Source: a virus. Taken from it: a stretch of 18,258 nt of DNA. A model generated the notes under the pieces. The model was not told the origin of the DNA and searched no databases. It saw only the letters and a program-made list of their open reading frames with translations. Of this stretch, positions 4,402 through 18,120 are shown piece after piece. The stretch lies in UHGV virus genome UHGV-0272440; one strand, given 5' to 3'. A program made the position numbers and the translations under genes. How positions within the stretch are numbered: the first letter of the stretch is position 1; each line of letters opens with the position of its first letter.

Positions 4402-4791
4402 TCAGGCGGCTGCACCCGCCGTTTTCTCGTACTTACTGATAGTGATCTCGACCTTCCCTTCCGGGATAACCGGTCCCCACTCCACCAGCATTCTTTTCAC
4501 CTGACTGTCGTCTTCCCACACACCCGCGTGGGTCAGGGCGTCAAACAGCGCCTTGTTATAGTTGTCCAGATCGCGGATCCGGTTATCTGGAGGAAACAAC
4601 ACGATCGCCACTGAAGCAGGTGCCGACGTTGGTTTCGGCAGGCGACGTAACTGCTCAACTATTGCTGCGCACGCCGCGCTCTGGAATTTTCGCCCCGCCG
4701 CGCTTATCAGACTCTTACCAGCAAACGCCCCTTTGTTGGGGTGTCGCCAGTACGTGTTCACGCTGGGCGGAAAAGGCAGGATCAGCTTCAT
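4402..4791 (-). CDS. rusA: Holliday junction resolvase RusA
   Basis: 129-aa ORF with the RusA hallmarks 'LPFPPSVNTYWR' and acidic catalytic cluster 'RRDLDNYNKALFDALTHAGVWEDDSQV'. Start overlaps the upstream stop (ATGA). Confidence 0.85.
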   Translation of the reverse strand: MKLILPFPPSVNTYWRHPNKGAFAGKSLISAAGRKFQSAACAAIVEQLRRLPKPTSAPASVAIVLFPPDNRIRDLDNYNKALFDALTHAGVWEDDSQVKRMLVEWGPVIPEGKVEITISKYEKTAGAAA

Positions 4792-5114
4792 ACTTTCAGG
4801 TCCCTCTCATGTAACCAGTGGGTTGCACGCAGCCTTGCGTTTTCCTCACCGGCAAGCAGTGCGCGGATAATCCCGACCGCCTCGCTGTCGTCGTCCTTCA
4901 CCGCGGTATGAAGCGTTATCCCCCGGGCCACGCCACGCTTTATCGTGATGACGCCTTTTTTCTCCAGTGCGCGAAGATGCTCCACCGCTGCATTCACTGA
5001 ACGGTATCCCAGCATGGTTGCCACCTCCTGATTGGTTGGCGGGAAGCCACGTTCTTTCTGATAAGAAATCAGCATATCCAGCACCTGCTGCTGGCATTGA
5101 GTTAACGTCGTCAT
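4788..5114 (-). CDS. LexA N-terminal DNA-binding-domain protein lacking the S24 peptidase domain
   Basis: 108 aa; aligns with the LexA winged-helix region: 'LTQCQQQVLDMLISYQKERGFPPTNQEVATMLGYRSVNAAVEHLRALEKKGVITIKRGVARGI' versus LexA '[63 protein letters not shown]'. No Ser/Lys catalytic domain follows. Confidence 0.7.
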   Translation of the reverse strand: MTTLTQCQQQVLDMLISYQKERGFPPTNQEVATMLGYRSVNAAVEHLRALEKKGVITIKRGVARGITLHTAVKDDDSEAVGIIRALLAGEENARLRATHWLHERDLKV

Positions 5115-5764
5115 GCCGCCATCTCCCTGACCAGTTTTTCCGCCTGCTGGCGAACCTGCGCCAGAAACGCCTCACCACATGCCTCAAGTTCATCGCGCCC
5201 GATGTAGCTGATTGCCGGTCCCTTCCAGGTCTTGTCAAAAACAGCAATAGCACCAGCGAAAAAAGCTCCTGTCGGTACCTGCTTCTCGTCTTTCGGGATA
5301 AACCAGACAGGCAGTTCAAAACCAATACGCCCGCGAATAAAAGCAATATGATCTGCATCTTCCGGCCACCACACTTCGCTGGTGGCAGCTTTGATCAGGA
5401 AAACATAGCGCCCGCCCTTATCACGCATGGCACTGGCATGTTTCATGATGTAACGCATGCCGGTGATGTATTGCCCCTCATGCTGACTGGCGCGGCTGTA
5501 TGGGGGATTACCAAAGGCAGCACCTTTAAGCTCCGCAAGACGTTCTGACCAGTCATGCGCAAGCGCGTTGTCTTCCGCCGTGTAATACGCGGCACATTTG
5601 GCGTTATCACCGTCAGTGAACAGATCCAGAACAAACGGGCCAAACAGGGTGTTAATTCCCCAGAAAATGTTGTCCGGCGTGCGCCACTGATCGCCCACTT
5701 CCTTCAGTTCATGGGCTGGTTTGTTCCGCAGTTCCACCAGCGCCTGGCAATATTTATTACTCAT
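5111..5764 (-). CDS. Phage N6-adenine DNA methyltransferase (Dam-type, NPPY motif), orphan
   Basis: Contains 'WRTP' and 'FGNPPYS' motifs typical of the phage Dam family. Start set at the ATG at 5764, which overlaps the upstream stop (TAATG), rather than the ORF-track start at 5797. Confidence 0.8.
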   Translation of the reverse strand: MSNKYCQALVELRNKPAHELKEVGDQWRTPDNIFWGINTLFGPFVLDLFTDGDNAKCAAYYTAEDNALAHDWSERLAELKGAAFGNPPYSRASQHEGQYITGMRYIMKHASAMRDKGGRYVFLIKAATSEVWWPEDADHIAFIRGRIGFELPVWFIPKDEKQVPTGAFFAGAIAVFDKTWKGPAISYIGRDELEACGEAFLAQVRQQAEKLVREMAA

Positions 5765-6252
5765 TAAGCCCCCACGTAATTCCCTGACAGATACCACTCT
5801 TCACCCGATGCAGCGCGCTTGCTGCTTTTCCGTAAGCACCGCTCACGACGCGCCAGAAAATTGTTTCGTTCTGGCTGGGAGTGGCTTTCACGGAATGCCG
5901 CCATCCACACGGTTGCAGCACGACGGTATAAGCCCCTGGACTCCAGTTCTTCCGCCTGACGGGTCAGGCACAAAATCACACGGGGATCGTTAGTGCCGAC
6001 ATAGAAATTGCGCACAGGTCTGGTTTCACGAACTGGTTGTGGTTCCGGTTCCTGCGCTCTCTCAGTCAGGCGCGGGAAATGTCTGCGTGTATCTCCTTCA
6101 CAACGGTGAGCCACACGCCCACTCTGACGTAACTTGCTTGCTGACTGCAGAACGCGCTGCCGTGAGTAACCTGCAAAAGCATCCGCAATGTCTCCGGAAG
6201 TACACCCCGGATGGGCTTCAATGAATTTCTGAACTTCATTCAAAATACTCAT
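5764..6252 (-). CDS. Hypothetical regulator, N-terminal winged-helix-like with possible PerC-like C-terminal motif; YfdN-like by size and position
   Basis: ORF of about 162 aa. ATG at 6252 preceded by AGGGGG; the GTG at 6258 overlaps the upstream stop. Motif 'ELESRGLYRRAATVWMAAF' is reminiscent of PerC/Pch regulators; recalled from memory, low certainty. Confidence 0.45.
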   Translation of the reverse strand: MSILNEVQKFIEAHPGCTSGDIADAFAGYSRQRVLQSASKLRQSGRVAHRCEGDTRRHFPRLTERAQEPEPQPVRETRPVRNFYVGTNDPRVILCLTRQAEELESRGLYRRAATVWMAAFRESHSQPERNNFLARRERCLRKSSKRAASGEEWYLSGNYVGA

Positions 6253-6254
6253 AA

Positions 6255-7247
6255 TCACCCCCTGAATCCTGCCGGGATCTGGCTGTAGTCCACGTTGTCG
6301 TAACTGGCTTTGAAGTACGGGTCTTCGCGTTTTTCTGTGTACGTGCTGACGGACGGCGATAAGCGCAGGGAAAGCTCATCCCATTTTTCCCGCAGCTTCG
6401 ACGGGCTGAGCACGTTACGGCACCAGAACGGATCGCGGCTGACGCGGCTGTACATCTCGCAGATTTGTTTGTGAGTACGCCCATCCTGTACACACATCAG
6501 GCGAATTTCGTTTGCCCAGGCTGTCCAGTTCGGTTCTTTAGGACGTACCACTTCGCCGTCACATTCGGCGGCCTGCTCGTACAGAGCGATGATTTTTTTC
6601 CAGAGCCACTGTGCGCAGGTCAAATCATCCTGCGTTCCCCACTGGCGCTTTTTAGGGCTGAATACAACCGCATCAGGATGGCGAGTTAAAAAATCCTGTT
6701 CAGCCATCTGCGTGTCCGGTTGCGAAGCGTCCGGACGAGAAGAGGTTTTATTCTCTGTAGTAATCTCTGTTGTATTCTCTGTAAGATCATTGGGCCATTT
6801 TGACCCGATGACAGCGTGTCGTTTTGAACCAATGGATCGTGTCATTTTGCGCTCATCCATCAGGTCACTTTGACCCGATGGAGAGGTGCATTTTGACCTG
6901 ATGGATTCGTTCACTTTGACCTCTTCTAAAAGCTCACTTTCATAGTTGATCGTGTAGAAGTTGGTCATGTCACGCTTCGATTTATTGAGTTGCTCGCGAC
7001 GCAAAACCCCAAGTGATTTCAGGCTTGCAAATGTGCGTTTCAGAGTGGACTCTGACCAGAACGGAAACTGCTCCAGCCACTGTTCTGTCGTGTTATAAAC
7101 CCAGCGAATTCCGCCATGCTCAGTGCCTGAATTCGTTTCATTCAGCCAGTAATGAAGCTGCTGCAACACAATTGCCTCATTCAGACCAATACGGCATGCA
7201 AGATCACGATTTATCACAATGGGCTGGGATGTCATTAACAGGCTCAT
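6255..7247 (-). CDS. Phage replication initiation protein (O-like functional analogue) containing ori iterons
   Basis: 330-aa ORF with GGAGG Shine-Dalgarno; N-terminal helix-turn-helix-like region; 6 to 7 direct repeats embedded in the coding sequence (lambda O/ori arrangement). The called product is positional and architectural, not a homology match. Confidence 0.6.
   Translation of the reverse strand: MSLLMTSQPIVINRDLACRIGLNEAIVLQQLHYWLNETNSGTEHGGIRWVYNTTEQWLEQFPFWSESTLKRTFASLKSLGVLRREQLNKSKRDMTNFYTINYESELLEEVKVNESIRSKCTSPSGQSDLMDERKMTRSIGSKRHAVIGSKWPNDLTENTTEITTENKTSSRPDASQPDTQMAEQDFLTRHPDAVVFSPKKRQWGTQDDLTCAQWLWKKIIALYEQAAECDGEVVRPKEPNWTAWANEIRLMCVQDGRTHKQICEMYSRVSRDPFWCRNVLSPSKLREKWDELSLRLSPSVSTYTEKREDPYFKASYDNVDYSQIPAGFRG
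6795..6945. repeat. Iteron array (candidate replication origin) inside the initiator gene
   Basis: Direct repeats with consensus about CAYTTTGACCYGATGG: 'ccattttgacccgatg' (6795..6810), 'tcactttgacccgatgg' (6865..6881), 'gcattttgacctgatgg' (6888..6904), 'tcactttgacctc' (6911..6923), plus degenerate copies near 6819..6835, 6842..6858 and 6933..6945. Confidence 0.75.
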
Positions 7248-10301: not shown

Positions 10302-10715
10302 CTTCATTTTATCTTTCTTTCCAGACAAACAAACAAGGTACTAACAAAATTTGGTTGTAACACGGCGTATGGCACATGCGTCGTTAGCGGTCTGGGGACG
10401 TTAAAGGGGACAATCCACTCCTTGCTCGGGCAAACAAACCAGGTAGCCGGAATGTGCAAGTCAATGATGATGCTGATAAGACGCCTAACCAGCGTGGCGA
10501 TTCGGTTTGACGCCTGGGAAGAGACCAGGGTGCAACGATGAGGGCATTTATGGAGCCGCGACAAAGTGTGGTGCCGTAACTGGCTAAGTGCTCTCAGCGT
10601 TGTGGTAATCCGCGAAATGGCGCGGCGGTAAGTATGGCGGGGTTACTCTTTCCCCGTTGAGGACACCGGATTGTCAGGTTGACCATACGCCTGAGTGACA
10701 ACCCCACCACAACAG

Positions 10716-10772
10716 CCACTGCTTTGGCGGTACCAGTTTGTACCCTTGCTTCCGGCTGGTACCGCTCTTTTT
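10716..10772 (+). ncRNA. DicF-like small RNA ending in an intrinsic terminator
   Basis: 'CTTTGGCGGTACCAGTTTGTACCC' closely parallels the 5'/seed region of E. coli DicF as I recall it ('GTTTGGCGGTATCAGTTTTACTCC'). Followed by a perfect 10-bp hairpin GCGGTACCAG (10727..10736) / CTGGTACCGC (10756..10765) and TCTTTTT. The 5' boundary is approximate. Confidence 0.5.
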
Positions 10773-10778
10773 ACAAAA

Positions 10779-10859
10779 CAGAGAAGAGCATCACCGGACG
10801 ACGGGCTCATAACCCAATCCATCCGGGCGGCAGCCACCGCAGGTGTTCTTCTCTGTTTT
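10779..10859 (+). terminator. Second large hairpin followed by a U-run (terminator/attenuator-like) in the early-left leader
   Basis: 12-bp stem CAGAGAAGAGCA (10779..10790) / TGTTCTTCTCTG (10844..10855, one G-U pair) enclosing a structured 53-nt loop, followed by TTTTGT. Confidence 0.4.
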
Positions 10860-10909
10860 GTGGAGAAACTAATCGGCCTTGCAGGGTCGATATGATGAGG
10901 AGCAGCAAA

Positions 10910-11272
10910 ATGGCTAGCGAACGCAGTACTGATGTGCAGGCATTTATCGGGGAGCTGGACGGCGGCGTATTTGAAACCAAAATCGGCGCAGTTCTCAGTG
11001 AAGTCGCTTCCGGTGTGATGAACACGAAAACCAAAGGTAAGGTCTCACTCAACCTGGAAATCGAACCATTTGATGAGAACCGTGTGAAAATCAAACACAA
11101 ACTCTCATATGTTCGCCCGACTAACCGCGGGAAAATTTCTGAAGAAGACACCACCGAAACACCGATGTATGTCAATCGCGGTGGTCGCCTGACTATTCTG
11201 CAGGAAGACCAGGGACAATTACTGACTCTTGCCGGTGAACCTGACGGAAAACTCCGCGCAGCAGGTCATTAA
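10910..11272 (+). CDS. hypothetical early-left protein (YfdP-like by size and position)
   Basis: 121-aa ORF from the ATG at 10910 with GAGGAG Shine-Dalgarno 8 nt upstream. The ORF-track start at 10679 would run through the terminator hairpins and is rejected. Confidence 0.55.
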   Translation: MASERSTDVQAFIGELDGGVFETKIGAVLSEVASGVMNTKTKGKVSLNLEIEPFDENRVKIKHKLSYVRPTNRGKISEEDTTETPMYVNRGGRLTILQEDQGQLLTLAGEPDGKLRAAGH

Positions 11273-12289: not shown

Positions 12290-12826
12290 ATGTCATTTAT
12301 TAAAACTTTTTCCGGGAAGCATTTTTATTATGACAAGATAAATAAAGACGACATCGATATTAACGATATCGCGGTTTCCCTTTCAAATATCTGTCGCTTT
12401 GCCGGTCATCTTTCGCACTTCTACAGCGTCGCCCAACATGCGGTTCTTTGCAGCCAGCTGGTGCCGCAGGAATTTGCTTTTGAAGCGTTAATGCATGATG
12501 CAACAGAAGCGTATTGCCAGGACATTCCCGCACCACTGAAACGTCTTCTTCCTGACTATAAACGGATGGAAGAAAAAATAGACGCCGTAATCCGTGAGAA
12601 ATACGGGTTACCCCCGGTTATGAGCACGCCAGTGAAATATGCCGATCTCATCATGCTGGCAACCGAACGCCGCGATCTCGGACTTGATGATGGCTCTTTC
12701 TGGCCTGTATTGGAAGGTATCCCGGCAACAGAGATGTTCAAAGTTATTCCACTGTCGCCAGGCCATGCCTATGGGATGTTTATGGAACGTTTTAACGAGT
12801 TATCGGAGTTACGCAAATGCGCATGA
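12290..12826 (+). CDS. yfdR: HD-domain phosphohydrolase (YfdR-like 5'-deoxynucleotidase)
   Basis: HD motifs 'SVAQHAV' and 'ALMHDATEAY'. 178 aa from the ATG at 12290 with GGAGA Shine-Dalgarno; the ORF-track start at 12263 is a GTG. Confidence 0.7.
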   Translation: MSFIKTFSGKHFYYDKINKDDIDINDIAVSLSNICRFAGHLSHFYSVAQHAVLCSQLVPQEFAFEALMHDATEAYCQDIPAPLKRLLPDYKRMEEKIDAVIREKYGLPPVMSTPVKYADLIMLATERRDLGLDDGSFWPVLEGIPATEMFKVIPLSPGHAYGMFMERFNELSELRKCA

Positions 12827-13167
12827 ATGTTATCGAAATGGAAGGGTTTCTTCGCGGGAAATGTGTACCGCGAGATCTGAAAGTGAATGAAACAAATGCT
12901 GAGTATCTGGTGCGTAAATTCGATGAAGTACGTGCTGAGGCTCGCAACGAGGGTATTAACTATACCGCAAGCCGTCTTGCTGCTGCTTTCAATCACGGAT
13001 TTATCAATAAGCCTTTGGCTGAAGTTTTCGACGTTACACGCATGATTCTGTCAGCAAAAGAAGAGTTAGCTAATGAATCGCATCCGATTGATGGCCTGTC
13101 CGGTGAATATGCAGAGAAATCCCTTGAAGAATGGGCGGAACAGATTCGCAAAGGAGTTCAGTCATGA
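12817..13167 (+). CDS. hypothetical protein (YfdS-like by position)
   Basis: 116-aa ORF overlapping the upstream stop; GGAG about 8 nt upstream. No recognised domain. Confidence 0.5.
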   Translation: MRMNVIEMEGFLRGKCVPRDLKVNETNAEYLVRKFDEVRAEARNEGINYTASRLAAAFNHGFINKPLAEVFDVTRMILSAKEELANESHPIDGLSGEYAEKSLEEWAEQIRKGVQS

Positions 13168-14980: not shown

Positions 14981-15552
14981 TGAACAACTTAATGATCGAC
15001 CTTGAGACAATGGGGAAAAATAAGGATGCACCGATCGTTTCCATTGGCGCGGTGTTCTTCACTCCAGAAACCGGAGACATCGGACAAGAATTCTATACGG
15101 TTGTCAGCCTGGACAGTGCTATGGAGCAAGGGGCCACACCTGACGGCGATACCATCCTGTGGTGGTTGAAACAAAGCCCTGAAGCACGAGCTGCAATCTG
15201 TATTGATGATACTTTGTCGATCAGCGATGCACTCTCTGAACTGAGCCATTTCATTAATCGGCACGCAGGCAATACGAAATATTTAAAAGTTTGGGGTAAC
15301 GGGGCCACCTTCGACAACGTAATTTTACGCGGAGCTTATGAACGAGCAGGACAAATCTGCCCATGGGCGTACTGGAATGATCACGATGTACGCACGATCG
15401 TTACGCTTGGGCGTTCCATCGGATTCGCCCCCAAAATGGACATGCCTTTCGATGGCGAACGGCACAACGCCCTGGCTGATGCTCGTCATCAGGCAAAATA
15501 TGTTTCAGCTATCTGGCAGAAGTTAATTCCTGCCACCAGCACAGAATTATGA
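14980..15552 (+). CDS. DnaQ-like 3'-5' exonuclease (DEDDh family)
   Basis: Exo motifs 'MIDLETMG' (D-x-E), 'VWGNGATFDNVIL' (D) and 'HNALADARHQ' (H-x4-D). ATG at 14980 with AGGAGGTG Shine-Dalgarno; GTG at 14977 is the alternative. Confidence 0.7.
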   Translation: MNNLMIDLETMGKNKDAPIVSIGAVFFTPETGDIGQEFYTVVSLDSAMEQGATPDGDTILWWLKQSPEARAAICIDDTLSISDALSELSHFINRHAGNTKYLKVWGNGATFDNVILRGAYERAGQICPWAYWNDHDVRTIVTLGRSIGFAPKMDMPFDGERHNALADARHQAKYVSAIWQKLIPATSTEL

Positions 15553-15588
15553 TTTTCCCGGGTGCAGCCGGTTTTGATGGAGAAAATT

Positions 15589-15861
15589 ATGAACACCTTG
15601 TTTTTACTGATGGCTGAATTCAATACCCCAAACATTGAGCTGTCAGCTGTATGCCAAAAGTATTTCGGTATGAGCCCTAACACAGCAGAAGCGAAAGCAA
15701 ATGCATGCCAGTTGCCGATCCCGACTTATCGTGTTGGTACATCACAGAAAGCAAAGCGCTGCATCAACATTCAGGATCTTGCTGAATATATAGATAAACG
15801 GCGTGAAGAAGGCAGAATTGAATGGGAGAGGGTAAGAACAAATAGGAAAATAAATAACTAA
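15589..15861 (+). CDS. small DNA-binding protein, excisionase-like/PrtN-like
   Basis: 90 aa from the ATG at 15589 (GGAGA Shine-Dalgarno). Last gene of the early-left operon, the usual xis position. Similarity to PrtN-type proteins is from memory. Confidence 0.45.
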   Translation: MNTLFLLMAEFNTPNIELSAVCQKYFGMSPNTAEAKANACQLPIPTYRVGTSQKAKRCINIQDLAEYIDKRREEGRIEWERVRTNRKINN

Positions 15862-15873
15862 TCTCACAAAAAA

Positions 15874-15895
15874 CCCGCTTCGGCGGGTTAGTTTT
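15874..15895. terminator. Bidirectional Rho-independent terminator between convergent genes
   Basis: Stem CCCGC (15874..15878), loop TTCG, stem GCGGG (15883..15887), flanked by an A-run upstream (U-run on the minus strand) and TTAGTTTT downstream. Confidence 0.7.
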
Positions 15896-16322
15896 CATCT
15901 TTATAATTCTGGGCAATTCGCGCCAGATAGCTCATCACATCATGTTTTCTTGCTTTTTCATGTGCATCGGGATACATAATAGCAATGAGTGAATATTTAT
16001 TCTCATAAAGCTCACCTTGGACATACACAAGACAAGCATCATTATCAGGATCACCTTTCTTGCAGACCCTATCCGGTTGTGGAAGTTTCTCGGGAAACTT
16101 GTTTGGCGGTAGACAAAGATGGATATGCATCAACCCAGCCCGAAAAGCACCATAAGGCTGAGTATACGCAACGTCCCTACCGAAATAATGCGGAAGCTCA
16201 CCGGTTGCTTTGTATCTCTTGAAATCATCAATGATAGAAGACTCTAGCTCCGGGAATTTGAGAAAAATTTCATCAAAAAATTCAGCTCTAGTTTCTGGAT
16301 TAATAGAGACTTCTAGATGCAT
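15888..16322 (-). CDS. YafO-family toxin-like protein (ribosome-dependent mRNA interferase family)
   Basis: 144 aa; blocks parallel to E. coli YafO as recalled: 'HYFGRDVAYTQPY' vs 'DIFGRDALYDDSF', 'HIHLC' vs 'HIHLA', 'ACLVYVQG' vs 'AHLVYCQG', 'SLIAIMYPDAHEKAR' vs 'LLIAILKPEPHKLAR'. Lies in AT-rich DNA. Confidence 0.6.
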   Translation of the reverse strand: MHLEVSINPETRAEFFDEIFLKFPELESSIIDDFKRYKATGELPHYFGRDVAYTQPYGAFRAGLMHIHLCLPPNKFPEKLPQPDRVCKKGDPDNDACLVYVQGELYENKYSLIAIMYPDAHEKARKHDVMSYLARIAQNYKDEN

Positions 16323-16338
16323 GGTCGTCCGCTATCGG

Positions 16339-16878
16339 TTAGTGAAATTGCATCGATTTTAGCTTATTTGATGTGTGACTAGCTAGTGCTGCAATTCCAG
16401 CAAGATCCGCGCGCCCGCTAAAAGTAACAGTTTCTTTAAATATGCTCTTTATGTAATTGTTAAGGCGAGTGACAGATGAGCGAGCTTTAGCAATATGACG
16501 CCAGTAAACCTTCAGTTCTGACCTGATAAATTCAGGCAGAGGCGATTCAATTGTACGCTTCACTTCTTCTTCAAAAGCACGCAGGAACATTTCGCATGCC
16601 TCTGTCGTATCTGTCCCGTTTTTGGAAACAAACTCGCGAGCATCTTGGCTATTAAGATCAATCAAACAGATATAGTAGTCATCTGCTGCAATTGTTAACT
16701 TTTGCAAGATCTCCTTACCCTCTTCCATTTTGCGTGAGAATTCCTCAACAGAAGGAGAGTACTCAAAAGGTTTAGCAATCACAGGGGCTGGCTGGATGAT
16801 GAACTCCTGCGCCATAGCAGCAGGACAAGCCAGAGGCCCGCACAATGCAGCAAAAGTAATGGCGTTAAACGGATTCAT
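16339..16878 (-). CDS. hypothetical protein with hydrophobic N-terminus (possible signal peptide), upstream partner of the YafO-like gene
   Basis: 179 aa; ATG with GAGGT Shine-Dalgarno; N-terminus 'MNPFNAITFAALCGPLACPAAMAQE' is hydrophobic with an AxA-like site but no basic n-region. No resemblance to YafN/Phd-type antitoxins. Confidence 0.5.
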   Translation of the reverse strand: MNPFNAITFAALCGPLACPAAMAQEFIIQPAPVIAKPFEYSPSVEEFSRKMEEGKEILQKLTIAADDYYICLIDLNSQDAREFVSKNGTDTTEACEMFLRAFEEEVKRTIESPLPEFIRSELKVYWRHIAKARSSVTRLNNYIKSIFKETVTFSGRADLAGIAALASHTSNKLKSMQFH

Positions 16879-17481
16879 GGCAACCTCAACTGTTTTACTT
16901 ACTAAGCAATAGCCTTAGCTATTTGGAGCAAAGTCTATAACCGCGGTTGTTTTTGGTCAATCAGATAAGGTAGCAAATGGTGCTTTATGAATAGATATGA
17001 ATAGAAAGAGCAAAACTTCAGGTTCCCAATAGGCTCCCACAAAGTGTATAACTAGTTGTTTTTCAAAAACGGTACATCCTATCGAGCATTGGTGCAACGC
17101 TAAACCAACCACTCCAGTGAACGTCAGTTTTTTCAGGCATTGCGCTGGTTTGGTTGATTTTTTGCATTTCAGAATTACCGTGCATTTTCAAATGTAGAGA
17201 TTATTTTATCGATATATCATGGAGTTATGTTATTCAGCATCACTGTTCAGGAGGCTCAATAACGGGGTACTATACCATAACAACAGGAAGCGCCTGTCTC
17301 ATTGCAAAAGAAAAATGAGATCCTCTCAAGGCATGAAGCTCTCACGAAGTGAAGATCTAATCTTATTAGATGTTAGCGTTGTGAAAAGCAATGATAAACA
17401 ATACAGATTCGACGATAAATAAAAATCACACATTAAACTCCGGTGATATCTCTCCCTGCTAATAGCACTGATAGAGAAAAA

Positions 17482-17545: not shown

Positions 17546-18120
17546 TTATTTCTCCGATTTAACCCCGAATAAATCATAAATTAATTTAGAAGTACCTGTA
17601 TATATTTTAATCTTTTCCTTTGAGTTTGGGTCAAACGACTTAGCAAAGTCAATTAATTTCGGTGCAGCATCTCGCATTTTGCTTAAAATATCAGGGGCGA
17701 GCGTTCCTTCATTCACCAGATGTGACATCTTATCCAGATAGCCATCAAAATTCATTTCTCCCCCATCTGCCAGACGCTTCATTTCTCCCAGGTACTTCTT
17801 CATATCACGTTGAGATAACTCTTCAAACTGAGCTGTCAGATAGTTCCCATTATGATCATTAATATTCACTTTTTCTGCTCCTGCTAAATCTGTGTAGGCA
17901 CTAGAGTATGAAAGTGAAATCAACAGCGAAGCGAATAATTTTAAGCTGTTGTCATCATATTTCTGACATGCATTAACAAACGTTAAAAAACCAGAACCTA
18001 TTGCTTGCAAATGTATATTCGCTAAAGGTTCATTATCTTTAGATTCCTCATAAAATAGCTGAACCGTGGAGGGAAGGCCATTCTTGGTTTCTACATCAAA
18101 AGTATATCGTTCTATGGGCG
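17546..18120 (-). pseudogene. 3' fragment of an unknown-function gene truncated at its 5' end by IS1
   Basis: The minus-strand reading frame stays open from 18010 up to the IS1 boundary at 18120/18121 and into IS1; it contains no ATG before the boundary, only a TTG at 18010. AT-rich, no recognisable domain. Confidence 0.5.

Follow-up and report, generated by a model that had tools for sequence, protein, structure and literature searches.

The closest described relative of the locus reported here is the YafN-YafO pair of Escherichia coli K-12, a type II toxin-antitoxin (TA) system encoded in the dinB-yafN-yafO-yafP operon, whose toxin is a ribosome-associated mRNA interferase. RelE, HigB, YafQ and YoeB are ribosome-dependent mRNA endonucleases of the BECR fold, and the antitoxins HigA, RelB, DinJ and YefM are small, cytoplasmic, DNA-binding proteins. 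YafO is treated as a small type II family defined by YafN-YafO, and it was discussed only in this form in the literature searched; a recent survey lists PF_YafO with the antitoxin-toxin gene order (Gerdes 2025, PMC11980606), and surveys of Pseudomonas prophages report a lone "YafO toxin", with its partner unrecognised (PMC10449497). Regarding the virus genome UHGV-0272440 (18,258 nucleotides; the whole stretch is hereafter called the window), a preliminary description made from the sequence alone had pointed out, in AT-rich DNA taken for possible prophage cargo, a gene for a 144-aa YafO-like protein located 16 bp downstream of a gene for a 179-aa protein (hereafter the partner) with a hydrophobic, signal-like N-terminus and no antitoxin-like features. 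Two options had been offered, namely a new antitoxin for a YafO-like toxin or a YafO-like domain recruited into some other two-gene system. The two open reading frames (ORFs) and the gap are as described, but both genes lie on the minus strand, with the partner gene upstream and the toxin gene downstream. The present evidence leans towards a cognate neutraliser, short of settling the choice, and a probability of roughly one half is assigned to the reading that the pair is a non-canonical TA or abortive-infection-type module in which the partner would be a neutraliser of a new family.

The window pair resembles YafN-YafO in gene order (upstream partner, then toxin, with a short spacer) and in the Pfam family of its toxin. 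The 144-aa protein matched YafO_toxin (PF13957) with 76.5 bits (cutoff 25; E 1.9e-21) over profile positions 1-100 of 101, and it shares 36% identity with K-12 YafO over 117 aa (E 2e-19), being 12 aa longer than the latter. A fold model of very high confidence, showing a RelE-like alpha/beta structure of the RelE/HigB (BECR) type, agrees with these matches, so that the suspected likeness to YafO is borne out at the level of family and fold. As the score against the NCBIfam equivalog model for YafO (NF007377) was 75.8 bits, under the cutoff of 153, the toxin is regarded as a member of the YafO family and not as an orthologue of K-12 YafO. The blocks common to the two proteins are DF, P..FG.D..Y, H-I-H, LVY and P..H. 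In an alignment of 40 toxin sequences, H66-I67-H68, R85, D95, Y100, G103 and H121 were invariant, and the HxH, LxY and C-terminal His columns remained so after K-12 YafO and the HK639, Pseudomonas and phage-plasmid members had been added; the invariant columns of the alignment that includes K-12 YafO are D-F, P..FG, Y, H-x-H, L.Y, L.A and the C-terminal H. In contrast, RelE, HigB, YafQ and YoeB share only 5-17% identity with the window toxin, which differs from them by an extra N-terminal helical segment (residues 9-40). A heuristic scan found no hydrophobic N-terminus in the toxin, whose calculated pI is about 5.7 (near-neutral to acidic). Judging from the alignments and the fold model, it is concluded that the 144-aa protein is an intact YafO-family member of the BECR fold that would act in the cytoplasm as an endoribonuclease, its RNase activity and toxicity being predicted properties. 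The idea that the pair is no toxin system, the 144-aa protein being a domesticated RNase or regulator without toxicity or else a toxin in decay, could draw on the NF007377 score, on the pI and on a literature search that yielded no experimental data for this clade. It is nevertheless judged very unlikely, considering that the blocks HIH, LVY.QG and P..H persist across the family, K-12 YafO and the most distant members included, that the fold model is very confident, and that both genes are intact in all 49 cassette-bearing E. coli genomes.

A YafO-family profile search revealed 179 clusters that fall into three length classes: 144-149 aa (phage type), 136-138 aa (phage-plasmid or chromosomal type) and 131-134 aa (K-12 type, with YafN). 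By sequence and length, the window toxin is placed in the clade of 144-149 aa, apart from the K-12 type. In all examined loci of 136-149-aa toxins, the upstream gene encodes a member of the partner family of about 180 aa instead of YafN. These two classes make up a large share of the diversity of a family that is otherwise known through YafN-YafO.

The pairing itself is strict. The partner and toxin genes were adjacent and in the same order in 19 of the 19 distinct loci examined, namely those of the window, Phytobacter, Enterobacter, two Pantoea, Ca. Pantoea multigeneris, Serratia, Yersinia, Photorhabdus, Gilliamella, a Klebsiella-like genome, the phages HK639, YMC11/02/R656 and pJN2-26, K. 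michiganensis, a metagenome contig, Salinicola, Pluralibacter and P. antumapuensis, with hosts among the Enterobacterales, Orbales, Pseudomonas and Salinicola. The gap between the two genes, 16 bp in the window, is 3-20 bp where it was measured elsewhere. The identities of partner and toxin to the window pair are correlated (Spearman 0.81, 17 pairs), indicating co-divergence, and the partner diverges faster (18-75% identity, compared with 30-81% for the toxin), a feature typical of antitoxin or immunity proteins. In Photorhabdus antumapuensis (98-1098), the partner gene is intact (186 aa), whereas the YafO-like gene, which begins 93 bp past the partner stop codon, lacks its N-terminal part and encodes only 115 aa; in this single case, the toxin appears to have decayed before the partner.

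The partner belongs to phrog_8416 and the toxin to phrog_1651, both of which are PHROG families of unknown function. The partner gave no significant match in Pfam, NCBIfam or PADLOC, and BLASTP comparison with YafN (E 1.7) indicated no relationship; YafN itself (97 aa) matches Phd/YefM (PF02604), whereas the partner does not and differs further in its length of 179 aa, its all-helical structure and its signal-like N-terminus. The lack of antitoxin-like features noticed at the outset thus stands, and the partner corresponds to no known periplasmic protein and to no known antitoxin. Its family is small: 5.8 billion proteins yielded 22 clusters at 90% identity, and a profile search of 1.84 billion proteins yielded 23 representatives at 50% identity, with lengths of 172-212 aa in nearly all members. 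The family diverges too rapidly for tblastn, as a search of phages with the partner recovered only two, near-identical ones. The AlphaFold2 model (mean predicted local distance difference test score 78.9) is all-alpha: an isolated helix at residues 6-24 is joined by a Pro-rich linker of low confidence to a bundle of five helices (residues 44-174). An alignment of 29 diverse members showed the motifs CExFLRxFE, AKARSxxTRLN and, at the C-terminus, FxSxxDxxGLxxLAxxTT...FH. Fold and profile searches returned generic helical bundles only, comparison of sequence and profile with the PDB gave chance-level matches only, and the charge complementarity of partner and toxin was uninformative. The literature search found no paper that names these accessions or PHROGs and none on a signal-peptide partner of YafO, and the label "YafM antitoxin" given to the partner in the record of phage PhiR40_1 has no support in the paper using that phage. 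While the toxin family is known, the partner family and its pairing with YafO are undescribed.

The N-terminus is the feature that separates the partner most clearly from classical antitoxins. The hydrophobic, signal-like segment that had been noticed in the window is a stretch of 24 uncharged, moderately hydrophobic residues with a small-x-small site AMA↓QE at residue 23 (the arrow marks the predicted cleavage). A heuristic scan of about 35 family members for signal features revealed an uncharged, moderately hydrophobic stretch of 15-27 residues in nearly all of them, preceded usually by 0-2 and at most 5 Lys or Arg residues and followed at about residue 23 by a small-x-small site (AMA↓Q, ASA↓Q, ALA↓E, TLA↓Q, VLA↓R and also VAA↓QEF). 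As the feature recurs in most partner lineages, it is no accident of one sequence. The partners of Photorhabdus, Gilliamella, Pseudomonas (phage R656) and Salinicola and the metagenomic members carry textbook signal peptides of unrelated sequence, suggesting that export competence itself is selected, and the partner is predicted from these sequence features to be exported via a Sec signal. These observations would also fit a two-compartment exclusion system, in which a periplasmic or envelope partner blocks or senses phages or colicins and the RNase acts separately, being held in check by low expression, instability or a host factor. The recurrence of n-region Lys/Arg, h-region and small-x-small site in divergent partners, the separation of the modelled N-terminal helix from the bundle by a disordered Pro-rich linker, and the frequency of envelope proteins among phage morons, together with a lipoprotein gene adjoining the pair in HK639, are all in line with such a system. 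However, the two genes are adjacent, keep a fixed order and co-diverge in 19 of 19 loci, which is difficult to account for unless they are functionally coupled; one branch without a signal is still paired with the toxin, and a RelE-fold toxin that is left unneutralised while its promoter looks constitutive would impose a cost. Two separate functions are therefore considered fairly unlikely.

The branch in question, which carries the 136-aa toxins (phage-plasmid pJN2-26 and the Pluralibacter chromosome), has retained the core of the partner (hhalign probability 88.7%, E 2.6e-6; hmmsearch 4.6e-10 and 4.9e-8) and lacks the signal-like N-terminus, implying that the core can work in the cytoplasm. 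Several features of other lineages also make ordinary export less straightforward. In the E. coli clade, there is no Lys or Arg in the n-region, and the segment, with its many Ala, Gly, Thr and Pro residues, is weakly hydrophobic (KD19 at most 1.45); HK639-type partners are borderline, with a hydrophobic core of only 7 residues interrupted by Asp or Lys. Moreover, residues 1-33 (MNPFNAITFAALCGPLAQPAAMAQEFIxQPAPV; 16780-16878, minus strand) are the best-conserved part of the protein in the Escherichia-Pantoea-Serratia clade, and when E. coli and Pantoea are compared, the signal region shows 13-14 synonymous and 4-5 non-synonymous codon changes, indicating purifying selection. As far as these alignments can tell, the constraint on residues 1-33 appears unusually strong for a signal peptide. 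All of this would suit a conventional cytoplasmic antitoxin of a new family, whose hydrophobic N-terminus serves as a toxin-binding, membrane-associating or degradation-tag helix; considering the unrelated textbook signals in the Photorhabdus, Pseudomonas, Salinicola, Gilliamella and metagenomic partners, which point to export competence, this explanation is held to be unlikely. An internal start giving a signal-less isoform was rejected, since conservation of M22 and M51 does not extend beyond the E. coli clade and selection at the amino-acid level acts on codons 1-21. Likewise, the partner was rejected as a lipoprotein because there is no lipobox in the E. coli clade.

The TA or abortive-infection reading rests on the TA-like anatomy of the locus (partner first, 16-bp gap, strong partner Shine-Dalgarno sequence and weak toxin Shine-Dalgarno sequence), on strict linkage, faster partner evolution and the single case of toxin-first erosion, and on the cytoplasm-capable core revealed by the signal-less branch together with the location of the window cassette in a cargo hot spot able to hold TA-type genes (see below); the conservation of promoter and terminator in cassettes from unrelated phages and the integrity of the cassette in E. 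coli genomes and on isolated temperate phages were also counted for it. Several points weigh on the other side. At about 180 aa, the partner is larger than a typical antitoxin, for example the 97-aa YafN, and it differs from classical type II antitoxins in having no helix-turn-helix, ribbon-helix-helix, Phd or AbrB domain in Pfam or NCBIfam. PADLOC-DB v2 gave no family for the toxin and a chance-level match for the partner (E 0.017). Most partner lineages have canonical Sec-signal features, and an efficiently exported partner would be unable to hold a cytoplasmic toxin. In addition, the literature search found no toxicity test of this YafO clade and no documented antitoxin with a Sec-type signal.

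In the mechanism proposed for such a module, the promoter, the partner gene, the YafO toxin gene and the terminator constitute a self-contained, horizontally mobile phage cassette, which is probably expressed from the resident prophage. The toxin would be a cytoplasmic RelE/HigB-fold endoribonuclease that arrests translation by mRNA cleavage, and the helical partner, its obligate, co-evolving counterpart, would most likely bind the toxin directly and so neutralise it, in the role of an antitoxin or immunity protein; the module would thereby protect the lysogen or the prophage. More speculatively, the Sec signal might clear the cytoplasm of free partner, either by exporting it or by directing it to the membrane, in place of the proteolysis that acts on labile antitoxins, and toxin release would then depend on ongoing partner synthesis. 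An export-coupled antitoxin of this kind is regarded as quite doubtful; its precursor would bind the toxin and keep it silent in the cytoplasm, and any partner left unbound would be continually drawn off through Sec export or retained at the membrane. If such an antitoxin were real, an arrest of partner synthesis or a perturbation of its targeting, as in phage-induced host shut-off, prophage loss or envelope and translocon stress, would free the RNase, and this would represent a new control logic for TA or abortive-infection systems, one common to the 144-149-aa clade and hence to most of the sequence diversity within the YafO family. Two described types of module offer partial parallels. ToxM, in which a BECR-fold toxin is joined to a transmembrane domain, is called the first possible membrane-associated type II TA in the survey mentioned above (Gerdes 2025, PMC11980606); the window pair likewise contains a toxin of the RelE superfamily and has a predicted link to the cell envelope, but the transmembrane segment of ToxM is borne by the toxin, whereas here the toxin is soluble and the partner bears a cleavable-looking Sec signal. 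Toxin-antitoxin-chaperone (TAC) modules, in which the fate of the antitoxin is tied to a SecB-like chaperone, according to the same source (PMC11980606), form a conceptual parallel; the window cassette has no chaperone gene, and the link to the secretion pathway would be the signal peptide of the partner itself. If the partner neutralises the toxin, it would represent a new antitoxin family and possibly a new route to a short-lived antitoxin; if it does not, a RelE-fold RNase would be coupled to an envelope protein in an undescribed way.

Table 1. Features of the partner-toxin cassette and its immediate flanks in the window
Feature	Positions	Strand	Basis or remarks
xis, PrtN-family excisionase gene, convergent with the cassette	15562..15861	+	Pfam PyocinActivator, 84.8 bits; phrog_1300
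Intrinsic terminator, bidirectional, overlapping the toxin stop codon	15872..15889	.	Terminator scan
Toxin ORF, YafO family, phrog_1651, RelE/HigB (BECR) fold	15888..16322	-	144 aa, ATG start
Intergenic spacer, 16 bp	16323..16338	-	Ribosome-binding site of the toxin gene is a weak GGA motif only; read from the sequence
Partner ORF	16339..16878	-	179 aa, ATG start
Mature part of partner, Pro-rich linker and five-helix bundle (predicted)	16339..16809	-	AlphaFold2 model; family phrog_8416
Partner codons 1-23, Sec-type signal-like peptide MNPFNAITFAALCGPLACPAAMA	16810..16878	-	Predicted cleavage AMA↓QE
Shine-Dalgarno sequence GAGGT of the partner gene, strong	16883..16887	-	GAGGT(T) nearly invariant across loci
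Inverted repeat AATAGC-taag-GCTATT, just past the -10 element	16908..16923	-	Position conserved, sequence varies by lineage
Promoter-like site TTGACC-17 nt-TAGACT, sigma-70-like	16932..16960	-	Consensus scan
Host dusA 5' fragment, prophage end (attachment site)	17063..17191	-	Co-oriented with the cassette; RefSeq partial tRNA-dihydrouridine synthase

The two genes are framed by control elements of their own (Table 1), whose layout recurs in other loci. A -35/-10 arrangement (TTGACC or TTGCTC, followed by TAnAnT) is kept upstream of the partner gene in unrelated phage contexts (loci L003, L004, L005, L006, L010, HK639, L024 and L025 of this comparison). At the position of the inverted repeat, comparison of L003, L004, L005, L010 and L016 revealed other repeats, such as GATAAC/GTTATC in Pantoea and ATAGC/GCTAT in Gilliamella; judging from position and sequence, the element is possibly an operator or a 5'-end hairpin. 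The RNA fold predicted for the 5' untranslated region was no better than that of shuffled controls (z = 0.16). A GC hairpin followed by a T-run also stands right after the toxin stop codon in L009, L012, L014 and L018; in L003, the hairpin is present and the T-run is not clear. The candidate of an RNA antitoxin or other known RNA element was rejected, as Rfam gave only an isrK-like match (15868-15921, minus strand) of 19.6 bits against a gathering score of 50, and this match is almost certainly just the terminator hairpin.

As for their genomic setting, 18 of the 19 loci lie in prophages, phages or phage-plasmids, the exception being the chromosomal locus of Pluralibacter, which has no phage genes in view. 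The insertion sites are diverse. In several loci, the cassette occupies the gap between the tail chaperone and tape-measure genes, and other sites are the baseplate cluster and the gap between tail-fibre and lysis genes; in HK639, it lies between the tape-measure and minor-tail genes, in the Pseudomonas phage, it adjoins cI, and in the window, it is located between xis and the dusA attachment site. In a Yersinia mollaretii prophage (L012, 2328-4438), a ParD-ParE pair and an extra ParD fragment stand immediately 5' of the cassette in the gap between tail tube and tape-measure genes, so that two TA-type morons are stacked in this slot. The GC content over 15501-17000 is 0.41-0.43, compared with about 0.48-0.58 in most of the prophage early region, in agreement with the AT-rich cargo DNA of the preliminary description. 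Because it has its own promoter-like site and terminator, a lower GC content and varied insertion points among phages, the cassette is regarded as a moron; together with the shared cargo slot described below, these properties uphold the reading as prophage cargo and set the pair apart from YafN-YafO in the SOS-associated dinB operon. Classical morons (bor and lom of lambda, gp15 of HK97) show the same autonomous promoter-gene-terminator unit, the lower GC content and the varied sites, often in tail clusters, but they encode a single envelope protein, whereas the present cargo is of a two-gene, toxin type.

Regarding the occurrence of the cassette in E. coli, the 2-kb region matches E. coli chromosomes at 98-99.8% identity, and in these RefSeq annotates the toxin (WP_000549966.1) as "type II toxin-antitoxin system YafO family toxin", the partner (WP_001067896.1) as "hypothetical protein" and the flanks as a PrtN-family protein and a partial tRNA-dihydrouridine synthase. 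The cassette was found intact, with at least 99.5% identity, in 49 of 5426 complete E. coli genomes. In one of 50 E. coli records with the cassette, it lies on a 55.6-kb plasmid-type replicon (NZ_CP142787.1, 30251-31241), which is possibly an episomal phage or phage-plasmid. The isolated temperate phages PhiR40_1 and PhiR55_1, both of which carry the cassette, match the region at their ends with 99.7-99.8% identity, and their records stop at about 17084-17100 in window coordinates. The carriers thus include inducible temperate phages of E. coli (PhiR40_1, PhiR55_1 and HK639), Pseudomonas and Klebsiella, which makes the module experimentally easy to approach.

The slot between xis and the attachment site holds different genes in sister phages that use dusA. 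In phage Lys8385Vzw (2132-3120), the identical slot carries, in the identical orientation, a SocA/Panacea antitoxin gene (PF13274, E 2.2e-19) and, downstream of it, a 139-aa gene; in phage mEp460 (1919-2822), it carries two genes without a family, which are reverse-oriented like the cassette. Since such other cargo of the same orientation occurs in these phages, the slot is a variable cargo hot spot that is able to hold TA-type genes, and the presence of a Panacea-antitoxin gene there makes the cassette a good candidate for a prophage defence or addiction function. Pairs of PanA (Panacea) and a toxin share with the window pair this genomic niche and the two-gene, partner-first arrangement; unlike in those pairs, the window partner has no Panacea domain. 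A terminator scan found no terminator-like site between the dusA fragment and the cassette (16879-17062), and considering that both have the same orientation, the host dusA promoter could transcribe the partner and toxin genes, in the integrated state only.

Beyond the dusA fragment lies chromosomal yjbM (DUF2713), the ORF of which (17546-18010, minus strand) has a TTG start and covers DUF2713 profile positions 84-235 only; RefSeq marks yjbM as frameshifted in a near-identical genome. Pfam annotation identifies the remainder of the window as a lambdoid early region, with Q antiterminator, DUF968, KilA-N, RusA, Dam, PerC-like, Rha/Ash, cII and Cro genes on the minus strand, and cI, YfdQ/R, Ea22, DUF551, 3'-5' exonuclease and PrtN-type excisionase genes on the plus strand. 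The ORFs at 153-1202, 5111-5797 and 4788-5114 (all minus strand) comprise two for DNA methyltransferases, one of the N6_N4_Mtase and one of the Dam type, and one for a 108-aa protein that consists of a LexA DNA-binding domain alone. Three ORFs have no Pfam family, namely those at 6255-7247 (minus strand, 330 aa), 10679-11272 (plus strand, 197 aa) and 12817-13167 (plus strand, 116 aa), and the first of these occupies the position expected for a replication initiator.

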